Shown: piece by piece, positions 3,336 through 24,000 of the stretch
Layout of the letters: the number at the start of each line of letters is the position of its first letter
Numbering within the stretch: position 1 is the first letter of the stretch
Origin: Dehalococcoidia bacterium
Lineage (GTDB): Bacteria > Chloroflexota > Dehalococcoidia > Lucifugimonadales > Lucifugimonadaceae
Assembly (NCBI GenBank): GCA_963422715.1
Contig: OY730475.1
Location: forward strand, 649,428 to 673,427
Direction of reading: 5' to 3'
DNA length: 24,000 nt
Notes under the pieces: generated by a model
Database searches by the model: none
Told to the model about the DNA's origin: nothing
The model's input: only the letters and a program-made list of their open reading frames with translations
Program-made: the position numbers and the translations under genes

Positions 3336-4220
3336 CTACTTGAAATAGTCTTGCAAACATTTGGCTTCAGCTATGGATCTAAGACGTTGCAATCCTTCTA
3401 CTTCAATCTGACGCACACGTTCTCGTGTAATCCCGAATTTATCACCCAACTGTTGCAGAGTGAGAGATCTGTCGCAAGCGATGCCGTAACGCATACGAAT
3501 GATAGCGGCATTTCTTGAATGATCCAAATCGTTTATCAGTCGTATTATCTCTGACATCAAAGCTCTTGAAGACACTATTTCATCAACCGAATCGGCTAAT
3601 GGATCGCATAGCGTCTCTGATATAGGGCGTTCAACTTTGCATTCTAATGATTCGATGCTAACGAATTCGGTTTGACGCCAATTCAGATATTGTTGCGTCT
3701 CCTCAATGCCCAGCCCAGCGATAGTAGCGATTTCATGGATTGTCAACGGTGGGCTATCAGCTGAATCTCGCTCTCTGAAACCCCGATCTATCTTGTGCAC
3801 AATCTGCATAATGTTTTGTGGCAATCTGATGAGTCTGTGTTCGTAATTCAAGGATCTGCGCATTGTCTCGTAAATCCAAAGTATCGCGACATGTCGCAAC
3901 CACTTGCCCCGCCGTGGCTTGTAGCCATCGATGCAGTTGATCAATCCGATATTGCCCGCTTGCACCAGATCACCAATGGGGGCTGGCCAATGCTTCCGCT
4001 TCTTGGCTTCTCGCAACACTAGCCACAAGTGCGATTCGATCAATCGAGCTCGTGCGGTCATGTCGCCGGCTATGTGGAGCTCTACCTGTTCAATCTCTTC
4101 TAAGCGGTTTAGCTTTGGAATACGCTGAACTTCGTCTTCATAAAGTTGCAAGCCAAAAGATTCGAGATTCGGTGTCGATTCGCCTGATTCGGCATCATGA
4201 AGTGAAAAATCTACCCCCAT
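3336..4220 (-). CDS. RNA polymerase sigma-70 family factor (divergent region 2)
   Basis: Region 2-like DLVQAGNIGLINCIDGYKPRRG. Region 4.2 HTH LTLQQLGDKFGITRERVRQIEVEGLQRLR. Region 3-like LTIHEIATIAGLGIEE. The track start is TTG 4229; the first ATG is at 4220. Confidence 0.85.
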   Translation of the reverse strand: MGVDFSLHDAESGESTPNLESFGLQLYEDEVQRIPKLNRLEEIEQVELHIAGDMTARARLIESHLWLVLREAKKRKHWPAPIGDLVQAGNIGLINCIDGYKPRRGKWLRHVAILWIYETMRRSLNYEHRLIRLPQNIMQIVHKIDRGFRERDSADSPPLTIHEIATIAGLGIEETQQYLNWRQTEFVSIESLECKVERPISETLCDPLADSVDEIVSSRALMSEIIRLINDLDHSRNAAIIRMRYGIACDRSLTLQQLGDKFGITRERVRQIEVEGLQRLRSIAEAKCLQDYFK

Positions 4221-4240
4221 ACCGACCAATTCTCAGCTGT

Positions 4241-7018
4241 CTATTGGGATTGCTCCACAGCCTGTACTAGTGCTTCATACATGCCGTCGCTTCTATCAGT
4301 GGGATTGAATTGAATATCGAACGCGCCGCTGGCATCAGCTACGTCGGAAGCGACCGGTTTCAGCAACTCCAATGCCCCTGCCGAAGCGGTGAATTCCAGT
4401 GCCGCCAGCGGCGCGCCGAGACGTATCTGCGCGTCATGCTTAGCCTTTCTTACCGCCGCGATGGCGCGACAGGCGACTCTGAATGATGATTCGCTAGCCG
4501 GCGGTTCTACCACGCTCAGTTCGTATCTGGAAAGCATCTCGCCTGATTTCGCCGGCACCGACTGGCTCAGCGATCGCGCCGTGGAATCGGTAAGCGGCCA
4601 AGGCGCTTGGTGCACAGAAGCGAACCCCGTCTCCGCGGCGAACGACCACGACCACACTTCGTCCGTGATAGTGGGCACGAACGGCGCGAAAAGACGCAGT
4701 AATACGTTAAGCCCTAGACGGAGAGTCGCTACTGCTGATGCTCGGCCTGCGTAATCTTCTTCGCTCCGGGCGCGTCGTTTTACGAGTTCGATGTAGTTAT
4801 CGGCAAACGATTCCCAGAAGAAGCCTTCTATGATCTGCAGAGCGTGTGCGAACTCAAAGTTTTCAAAATAATCGGTAGCTCTGTCTACAACGTCACTGAG
4901 CTCGGCTACAAAGGCTCGGTCGAGTTCATTGATGATGGCTCCAGGCTCGGCTTCTTGCATGAGGACGAACTTACCGGCGTTGTATAGCTTAGTAACAAGC
5001 TTGGAGCCAATGGTGAAAATCGATTCGTCGTACGCCATATCCATGCCGAGCCGCCCATTGGCAGCCCAGTAGCGCACAGCATCGGCGCCGTATCGCTCCA
5101 CCAGCGGCATCGGCGTTACGGCAACGCCGCGCGACTTGCTCATCTTCTTGCGATCGGGATCCAAGATAAAACCTGAGATCATGGCATTATGCCACGGCAC
5201 AGCATCGTGGTGCAATACGGATTTGACTATCGTGTAAAAGGCCCAGGTTCTAATGATCTCATGAGCCTGTGGACGAAGGTCCATAGGGAATAGCTGCTCC
5301 ATACGGTCATCATCTTCACCCCAGCGAGCGACTATCTGAGGCGTCATCGAAGATGTGAACCACGTGTCGAATACATCTTGCTCGCCGACAAATCCGCCGG
5401 GAAGACCGCGTTGCTCCTCACCATAGCCGGGCGGCGGCGTGAGCGTCGGATCCACCGGCAGCATCTCTTCAGTAGCGACTAGATAGGAATTATGATCGAT
5501 CGCGCCGTCTTCATCGAGCGGATACCATATGGGTATCGGCACCCCGAAGTATCGTTGCCGGCTGATAGCCCAGTCGTGAGACAGTCCATCCGTCCAGTTA
5601 GCGTATCTCTTGAACATGAAATCGGGGCGCCATTCAATCTCAGCGCCCTTCTGCAATAGAAGCGGCTTCTTATCCATGAGACGCACGAACCACTGGCGCG
5701 ACGGGATGTACTCAATCGGCGTATTGCCCTTCTCGTAGTAACGGACAACGTGTTCAATCGGTTTCGGCTCTGACTGCAGTGGCGCGGACACGCTTCCGGA
5801 ATCATTCAGAGCCAGAGCTGAATTGGCGGGCTGGCGCATCATCTCCACTATCGACTGTCGCACCGATTTGAGCCGTTGCCCCGCCAAGCAGTCGTAGTTG
5901 GATTGAGCCTGTTCGGGATTCAAGCTGCTCCAACCCTCCGTGTCGGCATGATACTCGACGAAATTTCGCGCGGTGGCGCGGCCGTCACGGCCGACCATCG
6001 GGCGCAGGTCGAGACCGTGTTCACGCCACCACTCCACATCATTCTCATCCCCGAAAGTGCATAGCATCAGAATGCCAGTGCCCTTCTCGGGATCGGCTTT
6101 CTCACTCGGGAATATCGGCACTTTGGCAAAGAAACCCGGCGTTACTGCATATTTACCGAAGAGAGATTTATAGCGGTCGTCGTCCGGATGAGCGGTGACT
6201 CCGACGCATGCCGGGATGAGTTCGGGCCGGGTAGTGGAAATGACGAAAGATTGCGGCATGCCCGCTTCACCCTTTATGGCTTCGTACACTCCAAACTCAA
6301 TGTCATGATAAGCTCCCGGCGTGAGACGATCTTCCACTTCGGCTTGAGCCACCGCGGTTTGGAAATCTACGTCCCACATAGTGGGCAGCTCAGATGTATA
6401 GACGTGGCCTTTAGTCTCAAGGTCTAGAAAAGAGCGTTGGGAGATGCGCCGGCAACGATCGTCGATAGTGGCGTATTCTTCGTCCCAATCGATGGAAAAG
6501 CCGAGCCGGTAGAAAAGTTCCTTGTAAGCCTTTTCGTCTTCCGCCGTAACGATATGGCAGAGTTCGATGAAGTTTTCACGAGATACGATCAGAGTCTGAT
6601 TCTTGGACAGCCCGGCAGCTTTGCGCTGTTGGTCGACGTTCAACTCTGGAATATAGGGAACATTGGGTTCCGCGCGCACGTTGAAGTAGTTCTGCACTCG
6701 TCTCTCAGTAGGCAGTCCGTTGTCATCCCAGCCCATGGGATATACGACGTTCCATCCCTTCATGCGGCGGTAGCGCGCGATGAGGTCTTGGTGAGTGTAT
6801 GAGAATACATGCCCTGGGTGCAGTGATCCGCTCGCGGTCGGCGGCGGTGAATCGATGACGAAGTTGCACGACCTTTCGGCGCTGTGATCGTGTCGTGCAA
6901 TACCTAGATCGTCCCAGATGCGTCGCCAGTGAGATTCGCGCTCCTTGATGTTGAACCGTCTGGGAAGCATCTTCGGATCGATGGGCTTCACTTCGGCTTT
7001 TGCAGATGTCATGCTCAA
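4241..7018 (-). CDS. valS: valine--tRNA ligase (archaeal/actinobacterial-type ValRS)
   Basis: Class I aaRS motifs: HIGH-type SLHPGHVFSYTHQD and KMSKS. The segment PPPTASGSLHPGHVFSYTHQDLIARYRRMKGWNVVYPMGWDDNGLPTERRVQNYF matches the ValRS subtype as I remember it. AGGAG lies 7 nt upstream of TTG 7018. A T-box leader lies upstream. Confidence 0.93.
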   Translation of the reverse strand: MSMTSAKAEVKPIDPKMLPRRFNIKERESHWRRIWDDLGIARHDHSAERSCNFVIDSPPPTASGSLHPGHVFSYTHQDLIARYRRMKGWNVVYPMGWDDNGLPTERRVQNYFNVRAEPNVPYIPELNVDQQRKAAGLSKNQTLIVSRENFIELCHIVTAEDEKAYKELFYRLGFSIDWDEEYATIDDRCRRISQRSFLDLETKGHVYTSELPTMWDVDFQTAVAQAEVEDRLTPGAYHDIEFGVYEAIKGEAGMPQSFVISTTRPELIPACVGVTAHPDDDRYKSLFGKYAVTPGFFAKVPIFPSEKADPEKGTGILMLCTFGDENDVEWWREHGLDLRPMVGRDGRATARNFVEYHADTEGWSSLNPEQAQSNYDCLAGQRLKSVRQSIVEMMRQPANSALALNDSGSVSAPLQSEPKPIEHVVRYYEKGNTPIEYIPSRQWFVRLMDKKPLLLQKGAEIEWRPDFMFKRYANWTDGLSHDWAISRQRYFGVPIPIWYPLDEDGAIDHNSYLVATEEMLPVDPTLTPPPGYGEEQRGLPGGFVGEQDVFDTWFTSSMTPQIVARWGEDDDRMEQLFPMDLRPQAHEIIRTWAFYTIVKSVLHHDAVPWHNAMISGFILDPDRKKMSKSRGVAVTPMPLVERYGADAVRYWAANGRLGMDMAYDESIFTIGSKLVTKLYNAGKFVLMQEAEPGAIINELDRAFVAELSDVVDRATDYFENFEFAHALQIIEGFFWESFADNYIELVKRRARSEEDYAGRASAVATLRLGLNVLLRLFAPFVPTITDEVWSWSFAAETGFASVHQAPWPLTDSTARSLSQSVPAKSGEMLSRYELSVVEPPASESSFRVACRAIAAVRKAKHDAQIRLGAPLAALEFTASAGALELLKPVASDVADASGAFDIQFNPTDRSDGMYEALVQAVEQSQ

Positions 7019-7074: not shown

Positions 7075-7108
7075 CGAAAAAACCCCGTCCTAACCAAAGG
7101 ACGGGGCT
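7075..7108 (-). terminator. intrinsic terminator of the T-box leader
   Basis: Minus-strand GCCCCGUCC-uuugguua-GGACGGGG(U) hairpin (7083..7107) followed by U6 (7077..7082). It lies about 60 nt upstream of the valS start. Confidence 0.8.
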
Positions 7109-7370
7109 AGGATTAGGCTTGCCTCGCGGTACCACCTTCGTTGCCGCTCGAACACAATCGAATCGGCCTCTCGATTGACGCTAGTAACGGGCGTTAACCG
7201 TCTCCACTTAATTTACGCGCGGCGCATGGATTCGATACCAATACACCACACCGCGTCTTTCAGCGGAACCGCTCCAGGGCGACTTCACGATGAATGCGTC
7301 ACCGGCTTTACAGCTACGACCGGCTCTCTCAAGACGCAAAACAACCGCTACTGCTCCTCTTCACAGCGTT
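7075..7370 (-). promoter_or_regulatory. T-box riboswitch leader (tRNA-sensing), upstream of valS
   Basis: Minus-strand GGUGGUACCGCGAG (7123..7136) is an exact match to the T-box core. An F-box-like CCGUUA lies at 7185..7190. Upstream elements are GUGA, AGCAGUA and GAGAGAG (7324..7364). A terminator hairpin plus U-tract follows immediately downstream. GAA-GUC-G at 7280..7286 is a candidate Val specifier. Confidence 0.88.
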
Positions 7371-7390
7371 GAAACATATTTATATGGAAC

Positions 7391-10224: not shown

Positions 10225-10300
10225 GCCCCGTTGGTGCAGCGGTTAGCACGTCGGCCTTTCAAGCCGGAGATCACGGGTTCGAATCCCGTACGGGGTACCA
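10225..10300 (+). tRNA. tRNA-Glu (anticodon UUC)
   Basis: Hand-folded cloverleaf. Acceptor GCCCCGU/ACGGGGU (G1-U72 wobble). D arm GUGC-AGCGGUUA-GCAC. Anticodon arm UCGGC-CUUUCAA-GCCGG with UUC at 10258..10260. 5-nt variable loop. T arm ACGGG-UUCGAAU-CCCGU. A73 and an encoded CCA. Total 76 nt. Confidence 0.9.
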
Positions 10301-17046: not shown

Positions 17047-20000
17047 ATGTTGGAGAACGAGATCATAGTCCGCGGCGCTCGCGAACACAATCTCCAAGGC
17101 GTTGATGTTCGGATCCCGCGCGACCAGCTGGTAGTTGTAACCGGGGTTTCCGGGTCCGGCAAGAGCAGTTTGGCGTTCGACACCATCTACGCGGAGGGAC
17201 AACGCCGATATGTAGAGAGTCTCTCGGCATACGCACGTCAATTCCTGGGGCGGATGGAGAAGCCCGATGTCGATCACATCGAAGGGCTGAGCCCTTCCAT
17301 ATCGATCGATCAGAAGGGGGTTTCTCGCAATCCACGCTCCACAGTGGGCACGGTGACCGAGATCTACGACTATCTGCGTCTGCTATTCGCGCGGGCCGGA
17401 CGTCCGCATTGTCGCAATTGCAAACGTCCCGTAGAGCGCCAATCCGTTCAGCAGATCGTCGATTCGATTCTAGGTCTGGACGAAGGCTCTCGACTCTTGC
17501 TGCTCGCGCCTCTGGTAACGCACATGAAGGGCGAACACACTGCGATCTTCAATAATGCTCACCGTGAAGGTTTCGTCCGTGCGCGTGTAGATGGTGAAGT
17601 GCGCGAACTCACCGATGAGATAAAGCTTAATAAGAACCAATGGCACAACATCGAGGTCGTTGTAGATCGCATCATCATTCGTCCCAGCACGGATCGCGAG
17701 CGATTGACAGAATCGGTCGAGACCGCGTTGAAACTGGCTGGCGGAGTACTCACTGTCTCGGTTCTGAATCCTTCAGAACAGCTGCTAAAGGAGCTCTCTT
17801 CAGGAGCGCGTAGCGGCGCCTCGGAGCGAAGGCTGAAGGGTCGCCGGCGGCGCAAAACGAAAACGCCGCGAGATGAAGCGCGCGACCTCATCTATTCGGA
17901 GCATTTCGCATGCCCCTCGTGCGACATATCGATGTCTGAGCTTGAGCCGCGCGATTTCTCCTTCAACACCCCCTACGGAGCCTGCCCCGATTGTACCGGA
18001 CTGGGATTCAGCATGGAGATTGATCCCGACTTAGTGGTTCCTGACAAGTCGCTGACGCTGTCGGATGGAGCAGTCGCGCCTTGGCGCCAGAAGGGCGCGA
18101 GTTCGGCATGGGCTGATTCAGCGATGCGGACTCTCCAAGAGCATTTTGACGTGCCTCTAGACGTCTCCATGCGCGAAATGGACTCCGATCATTTGAAACT
18201 GGTGTTGTACGGGGCCGGCAGTCGGCGTGTAAAGATGACACACATCACTCAAAAGGGCGATGCTTACACCTGGATGGGACGTGTCGAGGGCGTGATATCG
18301 AATCTGGAACGTAGATATTCCCAGACAGAATCCGAGAACGTGCGCGCCGAGATCGAGCGTTATATGGCCCAGCGCCCATGCAACGCCTGTAACGGCGATA
18401 GATTGAAACCCGACGCCCTCGCAGTAACACTCATCGGCATGAACATCGTGCAAGTAACTAGACAATCGGTAGAACATGCGCTCAAATGGATCTCCGCTTG
18501 CCGCAATGGTGCTTGGGACGAAGAAACAACTGCTATCCAAGAGACGATGACGAATCGGGAACTGGCGATAGCAGATCAGATATTCAAGGAGATCGAAGCG
18601 CGTCTGGGATTCCTTTCCCGAGTCGGGCTTGACTATCTGACACTCGACCGTTCGGCGGGCACTCTTTCCGGCGGCGAGGGGCAAAGGATCCGATTGGCGA
18701 CGCAGATCGGATCCGGTCTGATGGGGGTGCTGTACGTCTGTGACGAGCCATCGGTAGGGCTTCATCCGCACGATGGCGACCGCTTGATTGCGACGCTGAA
18801 GAGTTTGCGCGATGTCGGCAACACGGTTCTGATAGTGGAGCATGATGAAGCCGTCATGCGCGCCGCGGATCATATCGTAGACCTCGGGCCGGGCGCCGGC
18901 GAACATGGCGGTAATATAGTTGCCCAAGGCGACATAGACGCTATCGCTTCAGCTGATGATTCGTTGACCGGCGCTTATCTCAGCGGACGAAAATCTATCG
19001 CTACCCCGCGCGAACGTCGTAAGAGCGGGCAAGATGCCATCCGTGTCCTCGGCGCTGCGGCTAACAACTTGAAAGATATAGATATCAACATTCCTCTCGG
19101 CGTGTTCGTCTGTGTAACGGGAGTCTCCGGTTCTGGCAAGAGCACACTGGTGAACGAGATCATACTGAAACGCTTGGCGCAACACTTCTATCGCGCTAAA
19201 GATCGCCCGGGAAAGCACCACGAAGTAACAGGGTTAGAGCTGATCGACAAGGTGATCAACATCGATCAATCGCCGATCGGGCGCACTCCGCGTTCTAACC
19301 CGGCGACCTACACCAAGATGTTCGACGCGGTGCGTCAGCTATTCGCCTCGCTCCCAGAATCGAAGGCTCGTGGGTACACCCCCGGACGGTTCTCATTCAA
19401 CGTGCGCGGGGGACGGTGCGAGCCTTGTTCTGGCGCCGGATATACCCAGATAGAGATGCAGTTCCTGCCCGACGTGACAGTGCCCTGCGACGTGTGCAAC
19501 GGCGCGCGCTACAACCGTGAGGCGCTGGAGATTCGGTTCAAAGGCAATTCGATCTCCGACGTTTTGAATATGACTGTTAGCGAGGCGCAACAGGTTTTTA
19601 AGAATATTCCCGCAGTGTCGAACAAGCTGCAGACGCTATCGGATGTGGGGCTTGGGTATATACGATTGGGTCAGCCAGCAACCACTCTATCGGGTGGCGA
19701 AGCGCAACGAATAAAACTGTCGGCGGAGCTATCTAAGCGCGGCACCGGCAAGACGCTCTATATCCTAGATGAACCCACTACCGGGCTTTCCTTCGAAGAT
19801 GCTTCAAGGTTGCTGGCGGTGTTGCATCGCCTGGTTGATACTGGCAATACAGTGTTACTCATTGAGCATCATCTTGATTTGATCAAGAATGCCGATTGGC
19901 TGATAGACCTCGGTCCGGGCGCCGGGGATGCCGGCGGTGAACTGGTGGCGGAGGGAACTCCGGAGTTCATGGCATCTGTAGAACGATCCTTTACCGGCAC

Positions 20001-20277
20001 ATATCTGCGCGATTCAGCAGGTATCGTGCCTGATGCTAACGCGCCGGGATCAGTGGAAATATCCAACGCCAACTTCAACGGGGCAGTGAAAATGAGATCC
20101 GGATTGAACCAAGACGATCTCAAACTGTCTGAAAGCCTAGACGGAACCGCGCGCGATCTCACACGCGCCGCTAGCAGGAACGGCGCTGATCCATCTGTGG
20201 CGACAGAAGTCAATGGCTCCTTGGGTATGAAACCCAGCCGTAAACGTAGCGCCAAGCGTTCCGGATCGCGACGTTGA
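17047..20277 (+). CDS. uvrA: excinuclease ABC subunit A
   Basis: Two ABC ATPase modules (GVSGSGKSSL/T twice; LSGGEGQR/LSGGEAQR signatures; Walker B YVCDEPS/YILDEPT). Zn-module cysteines CPSC...CPDC and CEPC...CDVC. Non-canonical basic insertion and C-terminal tail (see findings). Confidence 0.97.
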   Translation: MLENEIIVRGAREHNLQGVDVRIPRDQLVVVTGVSGSGKSSLAFDTIYAEGQRRYVESLSAYARQFLGRMEKPDVDHIEGLSPSISIDQKGVSRNPRSTVGTVTEIYDYLRLLFARAGRPHCRNCKRPVERQSVQQIVDSILGLDEGSRLLLLAPLVTHMKGEHTAIFNNAHREGFVRARVDGEVRELTDEIKLNKNQWHNIEVVVDRIIIRPSTDRERLTESVETALKLAGGVLTVSVLNPSEQLLKELSSGARSGASERRLKGRRRRKTKTPRDEARDLIYSEHFACPSCDISMSELEPRDFSFNTPYGACPDCTGLGFSMEIDPDLVVPDKSLTLSDGAVAPWRQKGASSAWADSAMRTLQEHFDVPLDVSMREMDSDHLKLVLYGAGSRRVKMTHITQKGDAYTWMGRVEGVISNLERRYSQTESENVRAEIERYMAQRPCNACNGDRLKPDALAVTLIGMNIVQVTRQSVEHALKWISACRNGAWDEETTAIQETMTNRELAIADQIFKEIEARLGFLSRVGLDYLTLDRSAGTLSGGEGQRIRLATQIGSGLMGVLYVCDEPSVGLHPHDGDRLIATLKSLRDVGNTVLIVEHDEAVMRAADHIVDLGPGAGEHGGNIVAQGDIDAIASADDSLTGAYLSGRKSIATPRERRKSGQDAIRVLGAAANNLKDIDINIPLGVFVCVTGVSGSGKSTLVNEIILKRLAQHFYRAKDRPGKHHEVTGLELIDKVINIDQSPIGRTPRSNPATYTKMFDAVRQLFASLPESKARGYTPGRFSFNVRGGRCEPCSGAGYTQIEMQFLPDVTVPCDVCNGARYNREALEIRFKGNSISDVLNMTVSEAQQVFKNIPAVSNKLQTLSDVGLGYIRLGQPATTLSGGEAQRIKLSAELSKRGTGKTLYILDEPTTGLSFEDASRLLAVLHRLVDTGNTVLLIEHHLDLIKNADWLIDLGPGAGDAGGELVAEGTPEFMASVERSFTGTYLRDSAGIVPDANAPGSVEISNANFNGAVKMRSGLNQDDLKLSESLDGTARDLTRAASRNGADPSVATEVNGSLGMKPSRKRSAKRSGSRR

Positions 20278-20804: not shown

Positions 20805-20843
20805 GGATGGCACATGCTGTAAATCTGGGATTGGGTTTTGCAA

Positions 20844-21326
20844 ATGGAATGGCAAGATATTACAGACGATTTGATTCTAGAGATGCTCCAATCGCCTAAA
20901 CGAGTAACGGATGGGCTATCACTTCCGAAAGACACTAAGCAGAATTTTTCTCAATTCTGCAAACTTGAAGACGCGGATCAACGTTTATTCAGAGTGGTTG
21001 TCAGGCAGAATTTGCTTAAGCGAAGTGATTTTTCATGCATGTTGATTCTTACCTCACCGGTGACGAAAGAGTTGCATCTTGCTAGGTACAACGGAAATAC
21101 TCACCCGCATACCAACAAGCTTGAAAGAGACAGATTCCAGAATCAGTTCCATAAACACCAGACTACTGAAAGGTACATCAAGAGAGGTTTCAGACCCGAT
21201 GGATTCGCATTACCAACAGATGATTACAACGATCTGCACGGTGCACTGAGACAATTATTTAAAGACTGCAATATCAGCTCTGATGCCAACGATTGGGATC
21301 TAAGCCGTCAAATGAGACTGACTTGA
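20844..21326 (+). CDS. hypothetical protein with His-rich motif (no family assigned)
   Basis: Clean ORF in the AT-richer region. Motif block LHLARYNGNTHPHTNKLERDRFQNQFHKHQTTERY at 21072..21176. It is followed 8 nt later by the next gene on the same strand. Confidence 0.55.
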   Translation: MEWQDITDDLILEMLQSPKRVTDGLSLPKDTKQNFSQFCKLEDADQRLFRVVVRQNLLKRSDFSCMLILTSPVTKELHLARYNGNTHPHTNKLERDRFQNQFHKHQTTERYIKRGFRPDGFALPTDDYNDLHGALRQLFKDCNISSDANDWDLSRQMRLT

Positions 21327-21334
21327 GGGAGACA

Positions 21335-22168
21335 ATGCACTTTATGGATACAAAATTGGCTGCACTAAATGAAGCATTGCACAGCCAACTTCGCGACTTA
21401 GTTCACATCACGTCGCATCCGGACGACGGCGAATTATCGGTCAACACGCCATGGACGTTTGACGATGGCGATGGATTCCAAATATACGTGCGCCATATCG
21501 GTGAGAGTATCCGTCTAACTGATTTGGCTCATACCTACATGCAATTGTCATATGAGATAAACATTGATACGCTGGAAAACAGTGAAACTAGACGCGCTTT
21601 GTTACAGCGAGCACTCGACGAACACAATATCGTAGACAAAAACGGCGAACTGTGTACCGAGGTGAGATTAGATTCGATCGGGGAAGGCATCTTTAGGATG
21701 ACGCGCGCGATCGAGGCTGTTTACGCCTTGCGTCATCATTCACTGAATCGGACCAGGAATCAAGCCCGTAGCACATTTATCGATGACTTGGAGCGTGACC
21801 TGCGAAACGAATTCCGCGATGCGGGGTTTGAGACTAACTTCGCCCCTCTGAAATCGAAAAAGGCGTCGTATTACAAGGCTGACTTCAAGTTAGACACGGC
21901 AGATCGTGAAGTGCCTGCATTGATATTCGGTGTGCATAACAGCAACAAAGCGCGGTTGACATCAATCAGCTTGTATGAGTTCATCCTACAAGAACTCAAA
22001 TTCAGAGACATAGTGGTGGTTCCAGATCGCGATCAGATAGGAAGGGCTGATTACGAGCGATTGGATGAAATATCAACCGATGTCATCTCTCGGAGCGAAC
22101 TGAACGTAAATCTCGGCAAGGCGATTAGAGAACGGATCTCTGCTCATACTTTAGCTTTAGGCCGTTGA
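21335..22168 (+). CDS. hypothetical protein, DUF1828/DUF1829-like two-domain architecture (assignment from memory)
   Basis: N-terminal half: WTFDDGDGFQIYVRHIGESIRLTDLAHTYMQL...RRALLQRALDEHNI...GELCTEV...LTRAIEAVYAL fits my recollection of DUF1828. The C-terminal half (YYKADFKLD...PALIFGVHNSNKARLTSISLYEF) fits DUF1829. A purine-rich GAGGGAGA precedes ATG 21335. Confidence 0.55.
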   Translation: MHFMDTKLAALNEALHSQLRDLVHITSHPDDGELSVNTPWTFDDGDGFQIYVRHIGESIRLTDLAHTYMQLSYEINIDTLENSETRRALLQRALDEHNIVDKNGELCTEVRLDSIGEGIFRMTRAIEAVYALRHHSLNRTRNQARSTFIDDLERDLRNEFRDAGFETNFAPLKSKKASYYKADFKLDTADREVPALIFGVHNSNKARLTSISLYEFILQELKFRDIVVVPDRDQIGRADYERLDEISTDVISRSELNVNLGKAIRERISAHTLALGR

Positions 22169-22244
22169 CAGCGCGATTTCATCGCAACTAGTGCCATGCT
22201 ATCTTAAGTGTTATTCTTTCACGTTCTCAATAGAGTCTCGCCAG

Positions 22245-23519
22245 TTAAGTGAGTTCGTAATCCACTTCAATTTCGAATTTAGGCGCTTCAATCTCAGCAT
22301 TGTTTAACCAATCAATTATAAATAGATTGACTGCATCATTGAATTCATCTATAGCACCGATTCGATATCTGGGGAATCCGTCATAATTACCGCACTTCAG
22401 TTCCGGAGCATCGAATACAAGTTGAGACCGATCTGCAGTAGCCGTAATTAGAAATTTTATTAGCTTTACATCATTTCCAAATACGACTAGCTGCACTTCG
22501 AGTCCGTATTCTAGAGTTGGAGTGCCGGCGTATCGCCTGATGCGCTCAATATTGCGTAAACCATTAGCCAACCAATGAACTACTGCATTTAGATACAGCA
22601 CCTTTTCTACAGGCCTACCTTTTGCGAATCCATTCAACACTTCCAATACGCCATCTGACCATAGAGTTTCTCTATCGATAGAAAAAGAATCTCTATCGTA
22701 GATGAATTTTGTTCCGCGTAGAACCGGGATATAAGTTCTATTAATGTTAATCAACAGAGATGGAATCGGGTATACAGGATTCGGATTATTCTTGTACCAA
22801 GCGCGTAGATCAAGATTTTCAGGAGTAATATCACGATTCCCGTGCACATGCCCTAGATCCAGCTCGTCTACCGGAACGAACGTCATCCGGAAACAGAGGC
22901 CGTCATCGCGTTTCGACTTCAAATCACTGATGAACCGATTGAAATCAAGTTTACGCGTTTCGTAGACCCTGTTCATCGCCTCTAATCGGTTAGCAGACCT
23001 AAATGTCATATCCTGTATCTCCCGCATATCCATCGGCACCGATTCGGAACCGCGACGGCGATAACACTGGTTGTCTGCCTTGCTTCTATGTGGCGCACGC
23101 GTAGAACGCGGCACATCAAGCGCTACGACACCTGAACCGTTGCCATCCGTTACTATGCCGGCAGTCTGCATTCTCAGCAACGGCGGCTCAATCGAATCAC
23201 CGCAGATGCGCTCAATACGTCTCGCCAGTTCAGCACAATCCGCAATCGGCACTATTTCCGCGGCGACATCTGGTTCGCCATCATCCTCTTGCACTCCCAA
23301 GAAGATGCGTCCTCCATACCCGTTCGCGAATGCCACGATCTCCTTGAGGATAGCTTTCTTGGCATCTTTCGTTAACTTATTGCTGTCTGATCCTTTGCTT
23401 GATGAAAGTCCACGCTTGAACTCGACGTTCTCGCCTTCACGAATCTTGTGTTCGACCAACATGCAGATGTCATCGGCATTCAGCTCGTTTACAGGTTTTG
23501 TCAGTGCCGGAATAGTCAT
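22245..23519 (-). CDS. AlbA_2 (Schlafen-type) domain protein with uncharacterised C-terminal domain
   Basis: The N-terminal ~165 aa carry the AlbA_2 signature: E..VEFKRGL, AILKEIVAFANGYGGRIFLGVQEDDGE, and CYRRRGSESVPM at the domain end. Residues ~170-424 match nothing I recognise. Confidence 0.72.
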   Translation of the reverse strand: MTIPALTKPVNELNADDICMLVEHKIREGENVEFKRGLSSSKGSDSNKLTKDAKKAILKEIVAFANGYGGRIFLGVQEDDGEPDVAAEIVPIADCAELARRIERICGDSIEPPLLRMQTAGIVTDGNGSGVVALDVPRSTRAPHRSKADNQCYRRRGSESVPMDMREIQDMTFRSANRLEAMNRVYETRKLDFNRFISDLKSKRDDGLCFRMTFVPVDELDLGHVHGNRDITPENLDLRAWYKNNPNPVYPIPSLLININRTYIPVLRGTKFIYDRDSFSIDRETLWSDGVLEVLNGFAKGRPVEKVLYLNAVVHWLANGLRNIERIRRYAGTPTLEYGLEVQLVVFGNDVKLIKFLITATADRSQLVFDAPELKCGNYDGFPRYRIGAIDEFNDAVNLFIIDWLNNAEIEAPKFEIEVDYELT

Positions 23520-23621
23520 AAATGCGGAGAACTTGCTACGAGTATTTGATTGGCGATGAGGCTACACGCTCAATGCGAACGCAAACGGACATGTTCATGA
23601 TTTCTTTGGCGGTTGCATCTT

Positions 23622-23679
23622 GGAGATTTACTCACTTCTCCAGATCCTTAGGACTGTTCAATTTGCCGCCTGGTGGTTT
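23622..23679. repeat. direct repeat copy 1 (58 bp)
   Basis: 54/58 identical to 23932..23989 (offset exactly 310 bp). Mismatches at 23651, 23657, 23671 and 23674. Confidence 0.9.
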
Positions 23680-23868
23680 ACTGCTCTTGATCCATGCCTC
23701 CGGTTTCTGAGGGACTTTAGGCGGAGCAGAAGACTTACGTGTAAGCACACGACCATAAGATCTAAGTATCTTCGTTAGTTCCTCTCCTGATAAAGTATCA
23801 TTCTGTTCATTTTCAGGCAATCTATATCTCCATTCATAGTGTAATTCAACAGAATCATAGCATATCAT
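23632..23868 (-). CDS. small hypothetical protein (78 aa) with Lys/Pro-rich C-terminus
   Basis: The ORF is co-oriented with and upstream of the AlbA_2 gene. Its C-terminal 19 codons are conserved in a second copy 310 bp upstream, with third-position changes that keep the minus frame open, whereas the plus frame gains a stop. Confidence 0.4.
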   Translation of the reverse strand: MICYDSVELHYEWRYRLPENEQNDTLSGEELTKILRSYGRVLTRKSSAPPKVPQKPEAWIKSSKPPGGKLNSPKDLEK

Positions 23869-23931
23869 ATACGGAAGTAACTCCCCATCCTATTGTATCT
23901 TGAGCATTATTCTCTGAAGCGGCAGGATTTG

Positions 23932-23989
23932 GGAGATTTACTCACTTCTCCAGATCCTTATGACTGCTCAATTTGCCGCCCGGCGGTTT
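23932..23989. repeat. direct repeat copy 2 (58 bp)
   Basis: See copy 1. Identity includes 10 nt beyond the minus-strand stop codon. Confidence 0.9.
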
Positions 23990-24000
23990 GTTAAGCCATG
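23942..24000 (-). CDS. 3' end of a paralogous small gene (runs off the window)
   Basis: The minus frame reads ...WLNKPPGGKLSSHKDLEK-stop, parallel to ...WIKSSKPPGGKLNSPKDLEK-stop of the 78-aa ORF. The stop codon is at 23942..23944. Confidence 0.3.
   Translation of the reverse strand, partial: WLNKPPGGKLSSHKDLEK

Follow-up and report, generated by a model that had tools for sequence, protein, structure and literature searches.

A 24,000-nucleotide stretch of DNA from a Dehalococcoidia bacterium (contig OY730475.1 of assembly GCA_963422715.1), here called the window, ends in an islet of deviant composition with three genes of interest, which we call P1, P2 and P3. P1 and P2 form an operon, and P3, on the opposite strand, encodes a Schlafen-type protein; we discuss all three as candidate anti-phage genes. 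The islet spans position 20805 to at least 24000, and its right-hand end lies past the window. Its main features are as follows.

20805..20843, no strand: left junction of the islet, a 39-nucleotide spacer that separates the thioesterase stop from the P1 start and at which the composition changes
20844..21326, plus strand: P1, 160 amino acids, a probable divergent member of the DUF6978/PDC-M24A family, with a conserved histidine cluster (H87, H89, H103, H105) plus R81, N91 and E94
21335..22168, plus strand: P2, 277 amino acids, PDC-M24B family, a DUF1828 N-domain followed by a C-terminal domain without DUF1829; it starts 8 nucleotides past the P1 stop
22245..23519, minus strand: P3, 424 amino acids, a prokaryotic Schlafen (pSlfn) protein with an AlbA_2/Slfn nuclease domain (1-164), a long helix (165-203) and a beta-rich C-domain (204-424); motif E28-x4-E33-x-K35

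The content of guanine plus cytosine (GC) falls at about 20.8 kb, and is 0.535 over positions 1-20804 versus 0.455 over 20805-24000. Upstream segments of the islet's length (n = 353) have GC values of 0.512-0.563 with a standard deviation of 0.012, which puts the islet about 6 standard deviations under their mean. The GC content at third codon positions (GC3) is 0.44 in P1, 0.52 in P2, 0.45 in P3 and 0.35 in P4, a small open reading frame (ORF) upstream of P3. Upstream of the islet, GC3 is 0.61 in uvrA, 0.64 in the thioesterase gene, and 0.56-0.66 in 10 of 11 ORFs. Measured in tetranucleotides, the islet lies at an L1 distance of 0.305 from the upstream profile, and no upstream segment lies further from it than 0.212. 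An initial annotation of the window had pointed to A/T-richer DNA from about 20.81 kb, and sliding-window GC, GC3 and tetranucleotide distance all confirm this shift. The annotation had also listed P1, P2, P3, P4 and a partial paralogue of P4, and ORFs are indeed found at each of these positions. We read the islet as horizontally acquired DNA.

Around the left junction, we looked inside the window for a flanking repeat, a tRNA and an integrase, and found none. The exact P1, P2 and P3 sequences have no match on record, and an exact 40-mer scan of metagenomes for a continuation of the islet returned no match. Relatives of the thioesterase gene were present in metagenomes (n = 22), with uvrA upstream in only one contig (L152), which ends inside the thioesterase gene. 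An Rfam scan of the islet gave no match, and promoter and terminator scans of it were at or below chance.

P1 belongs to a sizeable family. An exhaustive HMMER search gives 642 cluster representatives at E ≤ 1e-3, including 273 at E ≤ 1e-10, and stand-alone proteins of about 160 amino acids make up most of the best 150 of the 642 representatives. Word-indexed homologue searches with P1 and P2 found no match other than the query itself. P1 matches phrog_27326 (E 4e-32). Among its relatives, 23 of 61 match PDC-M24A (model PDLC04538, best E 1.2e-8), and 69 of 112 match the Pfam family DUF6978 (PF22398, best E 1e-9). The putative membership of P1 in PDC-M24A is thus indirect, through family relatives.

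The assignment of P2 is direct. The protein matches DUF1828 (PF08861) with an E-value of 6e-17 and 62 bits against a cut-off of 22, the PADLOC models for PDC-M24B (PDLC04539, E 1.2e-12; PDLC04540, E 4.5e-10) and phrog_5059. All 95 members of the P2 family match both DUF1828 and PDC-M24B. A description of P2 as DUF1828/DUF1829-like therefore holds for its first half only: DUF1829 has no match in P2 at E ≤ 1, nor in the 94 other family members at E ≤ 0.001. The N-domain has an acidic cluster (D44, G45, D46, D63), and G45, D46, D63, Y73 and R86 are invariant; the C-terminal half shows a conserved STF..D, Y..D, P...F pattern. The relative closest to the P2 of the window, in a Dehalococcoidia metagenome-assembled genome (MAG; L104), is 32% identical. 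More distant DUF1828 proteins, at 25-28% identity over partial coverage, are encoded on the Staphylococcus plasmids NZ_CP121501.1 and NZ_CP095108.1 and in Rhizobium phage MN988516.1.

PDC-M24 is a PADLOC candidate of two genes, A then B. The islet resembles it in being a two-gene operon of that order, in that its P2 matches both PDC-M24B models, and in that the P1 family overlaps the PDC-M24A models and DUF6978. The PDC class comprises genes recurrently embedded inside known defence loci, and PDC-M24 was not among the candidates tested in the study that describes them (bioRxiv 10.1101/2024.09.26.614923). The initial annotation had recognised no named system in the islet. This view has to be given up, given that P2 is a PDC-M24B protein, that the P1 family overlaps PDC-M24A and that P3 fits the published pSlfn family (PMC13056530). 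We regard the family assignments of the islet genes as highly probable.

A scan of genomes, one per species, with a back-translated P1 motif (R.NG..H.H.N-x11-H.H..T) found at least 120 loci. Among the matches listed, 119 of the 120 loci have a P1-family ORF, and in 112 of these 119 a P2-family ORF lies directly 3′ of P1 on the same strand. As for the seven loci lacking P2, six end within 130 nucleotides of P1, and the seventh (L117) has a truncated P1. The same motif identifies 29 viral contigs in IMG/VR; P1 is present in all 29 and P2 directly downstream in 28, the sole contig without P2 ending at the edge of the locus. A check of co-occurrence had been proposed at the outset, and for P1 and P2 its outcome is clear. 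Across 96 measured pairs, the commonest arrangement is a 4-nucleotide overlap (35 pairs), followed by a 1-nucleotide overlap (13 pairs). In the window, the genes are co-oriented, in the order A then B, with a gap of 8 nucleotides, and a GGGAG motif precedes the P2 start. P1 and P2 are an obligate two-gene operon.

The pair is spread over many bacterial phyla. Its hosts include Burkholderiales, Bacteroidota, Verrucomicrobiota, Chlorobiota, Cyanobacteria, Actinomycetota, Acidobacteriota, Dehalococcoidia and Nitrospirales. In a single locus (L121:2909-5713), the P1 and P2 homologues do not abut but lie 1.6 kb apart; this operon may be interrupted by an insertion. Two apparent fusions, single ORFs that match both profiles (L070:4184-5482 and L123:148-1525), were rejected: each is a frameshifted P1 read through into P2, and these long ORFs are pseudogenes or assembly errors.

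In phage genomes searched with tblastn, three Pseudomonas temperate phages carry both proteins, adjacent and in the same order, with a 4-nucleotide overlap, just downstream of an annotated cI repressor on the same strand. In Pseudomonas phage 5399, for example, one strand holds cI, a small ORF, the P1 homologue and the P2 homologue. In 20 distinct viral contigs, 13 of the ORFs that lie up to three positions away from the pair carry Peptidase_S24 (cI/LexA-type), and other domains nearby are HTH_3, HTH_31, CII, Cro, N peptide, antirepressor and Rha. Given these repressor-type domains, the pair is cargo of the immunity region of temperate phages. Lambda rexAB and other exclusion genes that are expressed in lysogens occupy this position. 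The likeness to rexAB is positional only, in that the pair of phage 5399 is downstream of a cI-type repressor and co-oriented with it, and it is a feature of the phage homologues, not of the window. RexB is a membrane protein, whereas no obvious membrane-spanning stretch is visible in P1 or P2 (by eye, not computed), and Pfam shows no family beyond DUF1828, and so no homology to RexA or RexB, in either protein.

The histidine motif that was initially noticed in P1 is real and conserved, with H87, H89, H103 and H105 invariant or nearly so across 112 homologues. In this set, R81, H89, N91 and H105 are invariant, and the nearly invariant residues include D8, K19, R54, N83, G84, H87, E94, H103, T108, R110 and Y111. 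An AlphaFold 2 model of P1 built with the 112 homologues is confident (predicted local distance difference test, pLDDT, 94.2; predicted template modelling score, pTM, 0.88). In it, a helix at the N-terminus precedes an antiparallel meander of four strands, after which come three short strands and a further pair of helices with one strand between them. The two H-x-H pairs lie in or next to two adjacent short strands (89-91 and 103-106), close to where the sheet ends. Judging from this conservation, the four-histidine centre is likely a metal- or phosphate-binding catalytic site. Foldseek searches of the PDB and BFVD with the model found nothing significant, and sequence and profile searches of the PDB with P1 and P2 found no match. 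As alternatives, we considered a HEPN Rx5H motif, HNH, the HIT/GalT 'HPH' motif, a cupin HxHx4E motif and GIY-YIG, and set them aside: all are well-represented folds, and Foldseek matches the beta-rich model to none of them.

We propose that the P1-P2 operon is a first module, a divergent member of PDC-M24. The two cytoplasmic proteins would act as a complex. P1 would be its enzymatic part: the four conserved histidines, together with Asn, Glu and Arg, that its small alpha/beta fold presents suggest a metal- or phosphate-dependent hydrolase. P2, with its acidic DUF1828 cluster and C-terminal domain, may sense infection or restrain P1. The phage-borne pair may be expressed in lysogens to exclude other phages, because it occupies a rexAB-like position beside a cI-type repressor.

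A different explanation is that P1 and P2 are a toxin-antitoxin or addiction module that mainly stabilizes its carrier DNA, prophage or islet, and does not defend against phages. Strict pairing in an operon, in most cases with an overlap or a gap of a few bases, would fit such a module, and the pair occurs on prophages and on DNA of foreign composition; PIN-type toxin-antitoxin pairs are found in similar hotspots. In addition, DS-6/HipAD, the one defence system with a DUF1829 partner that the literature describes, was itself proposed to be toxin-antitoxin-like (PMC13092281). This validated two-gene system, found by DefensePredictor, has DUF1829 in its second protein (PMC13092281), the domain that Pfam usually pairs with DUF1828. 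By contrast, P2 has DUF1828 and not DUF1829 or DUF3037, and P1 is no HipA kinase; the islet pair and DS-6/HipAD are not the same system. P1 (160 amino acids) and P2 (about 260) are also larger than typical partners of type II modules, and Pfam finds no helix-turn-helix or antitoxin-type DNA-binding domain in either. We therefore consider an addiction module unlikely, although it overlaps with anti-phage defence, given that toxin-antitoxin behaviour and abortive infection are not mutually exclusive.

P3 had been described as an AlbA_2/Schlafen-type N-domain followed by a C-domain of no known kind, and both halves of this description stand. Residues 28-164 match the Pfam family SLFN_AlbA_2 (PF04326; E 1.8e-16), and the C-domain has no Pfam or PDB relative. 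We found 54 homologues at E ≤ 0.001, mostly full-length at about 420 amino acids, and in 51 homologues all three residues of E28-GENV-E33-F-K35 are invariant. Ex4(E/D)xK is the catalytic motif of SLFN11 and RorSlfn5 (PMC13056530). In the AlphaFold 2 model (pLDDT 90), the AlbA_2 domain is followed by a 40-residue helix and the beta-rich C-domain, and the model is confident over residues 204-424. Foldseek aligns it with 2kyy, SLFN5/11/12/13/14 and SAMD9, in all cases through the N-domain only. For the C-domain, the best Foldseek matches are to AdoMetDC (E 0.01-0.06, probability below 0.45) and are not significant, and the domain is not detectably Ig-like (immunoglobulin-like). On average, homologues share 50% identity with the N-domain of P3 and 29% with its C-domain.

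Members of the pSlfn family were shown in 2026 to be phage-triggered tRNases (Nat Microbiol 2026, PMC13056530). The family has 55 architectures, and 17% are fused to unannotated domains; in RorSlfn5, tRNA cleavage is set off when the Ig-like domain at the C-terminus detects a tail assembly chaperone of T5, and the sensor domain of pSlfn5 likewise diverges faster than the nuclease (PMC13056530). P3 shares with these proteins the N-terminal Slfn/AlbA_2 domain with Ex4(E/D)xK, the single-polypeptide organization, a C-domain that diverges faster than the nuclease, and relatives in defence islands. Judged by the published description, its C-domain appears to differ from the Ig-like domain of RorSlfn5, and P3 would fit the class of unannotated fusions. 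It also resembles the AlbA_2 domains of human SLFN11/12/13/14 and SAMD9 in the fold of its N-domain (Foldseek E 1e-4 to 1e-2, probability 0.9-1.0) and in the catalytic carboxylate motif. P3 differs from these human proteins in having one lobe instead of a two-lobed horseshoe, in its low identity to them (13-20%) and in lacking helicase or GTPase-like domains.

P3 homologues in genomes of 2.6 Mb are found in a variable hotspot, flanked on one side by an Aminotran_4 gene and on the other by MR_MLE/MutS. Genes within 10 kb of these homologues include HEC-02A (E 1.7e-122), HEC-09/NYN (E 3.6e-80) and a SngC/BrxH-like helicase (E 2.8e-44), as well as methyltransferase-like proteins of 739-970 amino acids and PIN toxin-antitoxin pairs. 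Within the window, the PDC-M24-like candidate is the only defence-type neighbour of P3.

We propose that P3 is a second module, a prokaryotic Schlafen system of one gene. If it works as RorSlfn5 does, its variable C-domain would recognize a phage protein. Recognition would free the N-terminal Ex4ExK nuclease, which would cut tRNA and so shut down translation.

Alternatively, P3 could be a regulator that binds nucleic acids, and not an effector nuclease. Annotations often call AlbA_2 a 'putative DNA-binding domain', and this wording is among the JGI names of P3 homologues. Moreover, the best Foldseek match (2kyy) is the N-domain of a RecG-related protein, and the AlbA_2 domain of SAMD9 was solved bound to DNA. 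Against a regulator, the Ex4ExK triad that is catalytic in SLFN11 and RorSlfn5 is invariant in 51 of 51 homologues, P3 has no helix-turn-helix or histidine-kinase domain, and its homologues lie among defence genes. The fast divergence of the C-domain is also the pattern expected of a sensor. On balance, we doubt that P3 is a regulator and favour the nuclease effector.

Two further genes recur upstream of P3 homologues. The first, in four of five distinct neighbourhoods, is a 120-amino-acid retropepsin-like gene on the same strand, separated by about 20 nucleotides in three of the four.

L009:7614-7976, L132:7618-7980, L134:7620-7982 and L130:6670-7032: retropepsin-like gene with an LVDTGA motif, matching Pfam gag-asp_proteas/Asp_protease_2 and PADLOC PEPT_D (E 5e-4)

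This gene may be a partner of the pSlfn clade to which P3 belongs. The second comprises the proteins of 739-970 amino acids (L009:4610-7522, L008:5732-7951 and L134:5077-7509). They have no Pfam domains and match PADLOC models of type II methyltransferases, mad2 and PglX weakly, and may be single-chain restriction-modification or BREX-like enzymes.

Taken together, we read the islet as two independent anti-phage modules side by side, with a probability of roughly 65%. The initial annotation had allowed for one or two defence-like modules and had treated the four genes as one combination. Two modules are supported, but the single combination is not: P3-type genes are missing from 147 of 148 other pair loci, and, conversely, the pair is missing from all seven loci with P3 homologues. 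In the window, P1-P2 and P3 are transcribed towards each other. That the two modules sit side by side is clustering of the island type, not one system. A Polaromonas MAG is the sole case among the 148 loci in which a 515-amino-acid ORF with a weak match to AlbA_2 and the P3 profile (L093:382-1929; E 2e-6) lies beside a P1-P2 pair.

A number of observations weigh against two anti-phage modules. The P1 of the window is too divergent to match the PDC-M24A or DUF6978 models at E ≤ 1, and PDC-M24 is itself a prediction. Given that P1 falls under the thresholds of these models, the locus probably escapes PADLOC. The proposed active site of P1 rests on conservation, and no structural relative of the protein was found. 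In the literature that we searched, no paper names PDC-M24 or reports an experiment on it. The chromosomal neighbours of the pair are mixed, and include ABC transporters, response regulators and TPR proteins; some are restriction enzymes, methyltransferases or other PADLOC candidates, and no third gene is conserved beside chromosomal pairs. Regarding P3, only two of seven pSlfn genes tested in E. coli gave defence, and 30% of pSlfn genes have no defence neighbours (PMC13056530), a proportion that would also suit a regulator. Neither the retropepsin-like nor the methyltransferase-like partner of P3 relatives is present in the window; P3 may have no partners here, or they may lie beyond position 24000. 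That the modules defend against phages is inferred, and so are the parts played by P1 and P2, the substrate and the trigger.

The pair might also serve the phage life cycle, by controlling lysogeny or induction or by countering defence, in which case the chromosomal copy would be the remnant of a decayed prophage. The cI-type repressor within three ORFs of the pair and the CII, Cro, N and antirepressor genes nearby would fit this role, as would the existence of PHROG families for both proteins and the foreign composition of the islet. However, phage genes are missing among the immediate neighbours of the pair in most of the 119 genome loci, and in the window the pair is not accompanied by integrase, structural or replication genes. 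The pair is also rare in sequenced phages (5 of 50,697 records), is carried by two archaeal MAGs (Methanomassiliicoccales and Nanoarchaeia), and is listed by PADLOC for its embedding in defence loci. A phage-lifecycle function is thus quite improbable, and we retain two anti-phage modules as the preferred reading. That P1, P2, P3 and P4 form a single multi-gene system, as their adjacency and common low GC might imply, can be dismissed as extremely improbable, being already contradicted by the separate occurrence of the pair and P3 homologues (with L093 as one weak exception), by the convergence of P1-P2 and P3, and by the lack of P4 homologues in plasmids or fetched loci.

We now describe the remaining features of the islet, which surround P4.

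23632..23868, minus strand: P4, an ORF of 78 amino acids that may or may not be a gene; it is co-oriented with P3 and lies 112 nucleotides upstream of it
23942..24000, minus strand: partial paralogue of P4, of which the C-terminal 18 codons and the stop are in the window; it runs off the window
23609..23679, no strand: copy 1 of a 71-nucleotide direct repeat, covering the last 16 codons of P4 and 23 nucleotides past its stop
23919..23989, no strand: copy 2 of the repeat, 87% identical to copy 1, at the 3′ end of the P4 paralogue

The C-termini of P4 and its paralogue, KSSKPPGGKLNSPKDLEK and WLNKPPGGKLSSHKDLEK, each followed by the stop, are both inside the 71-nucleotide repeat, whose copies are 310 nucleotides apart. 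The repeat may stem from the duplication of a small gene or be a short repeated element, and the duplicated unit may be more than coding sequence, because the non-coding tail is conserved too. None of Pfam, NCBIfam, PADLOC and PHROG has a match for P4, the protein collection does not contain it, and it has no relative in plasmids or any fetched locus. The inclusion of P4 among the defence genes is thus not supported, and neither is its status as a gene. A resemblance to HicA in 'SGEELTKILRSYG' was set aside, having no support from Pfam.

Elsewhere in the window, an ORF of 297 amino acids at 3336-4229 on the minus strand has a GC content of 0.465 and a GC3 of 0.47, the latter far under that of its neighbours (0.56-0.66), and may be a second small foreign insertion. 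UvrA (17047-20277, plus strand, 1076 amino acids) has a low-complexity C-terminal tail of about 120 amino acids that ends in a basic stretch (...KPSRKRSAKRSGSRR). The uvrA stop overlaps the thioesterase start at 20274, which suggests that the two genes are translationally coupled. A T-box leader (7094-7373, minus strand, Rfam score 107.7 bits) is upstream of an ORF of 925 amino acids at 4241-7018, and a tRNA-Glu is at 10225-10300.

Both modules belong to catalogued families: PDC-M24 was already listed as a candidate, and pSlfn was validated in 2026. What is new is a putative PDC-M24A protein that has a conserved four-histidine centre and no solved structural relative, and the unannotated sensor domain of P3. 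We advance only tentatively the stronger proposal that PDC-M24-type P1 and P2 are a genuine and widespread anti-phage system, in which P1 is an effector enzyme of unseen fold with a four-histidine centre, and that the C-domain of P3 is a new class of phage-protein sensor on a Schlafen tRNase.

PDC-M24 is one of hundreds of computational defence candidates. Its pair is essentially never split and lies beside a temperate-phage repressor in most of the viral contigs examined, and the PADLOC and Pfam models now in use fail to match A components as divergent as the P1 of the window. The pairing, the repressor context, the missed branch of A components, and the fold of P1 with its four histidines make this pair a well-defined target for phage challenge and mutagenesis. 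P3 adds an unannotated sensor domain to the bacterial Schlafen family, and could help to map the phage proteins that this family detects. If the proposed role is true, the P1 enzyme of PDC-M24 would represent a new biochemical mechanism of immunity.

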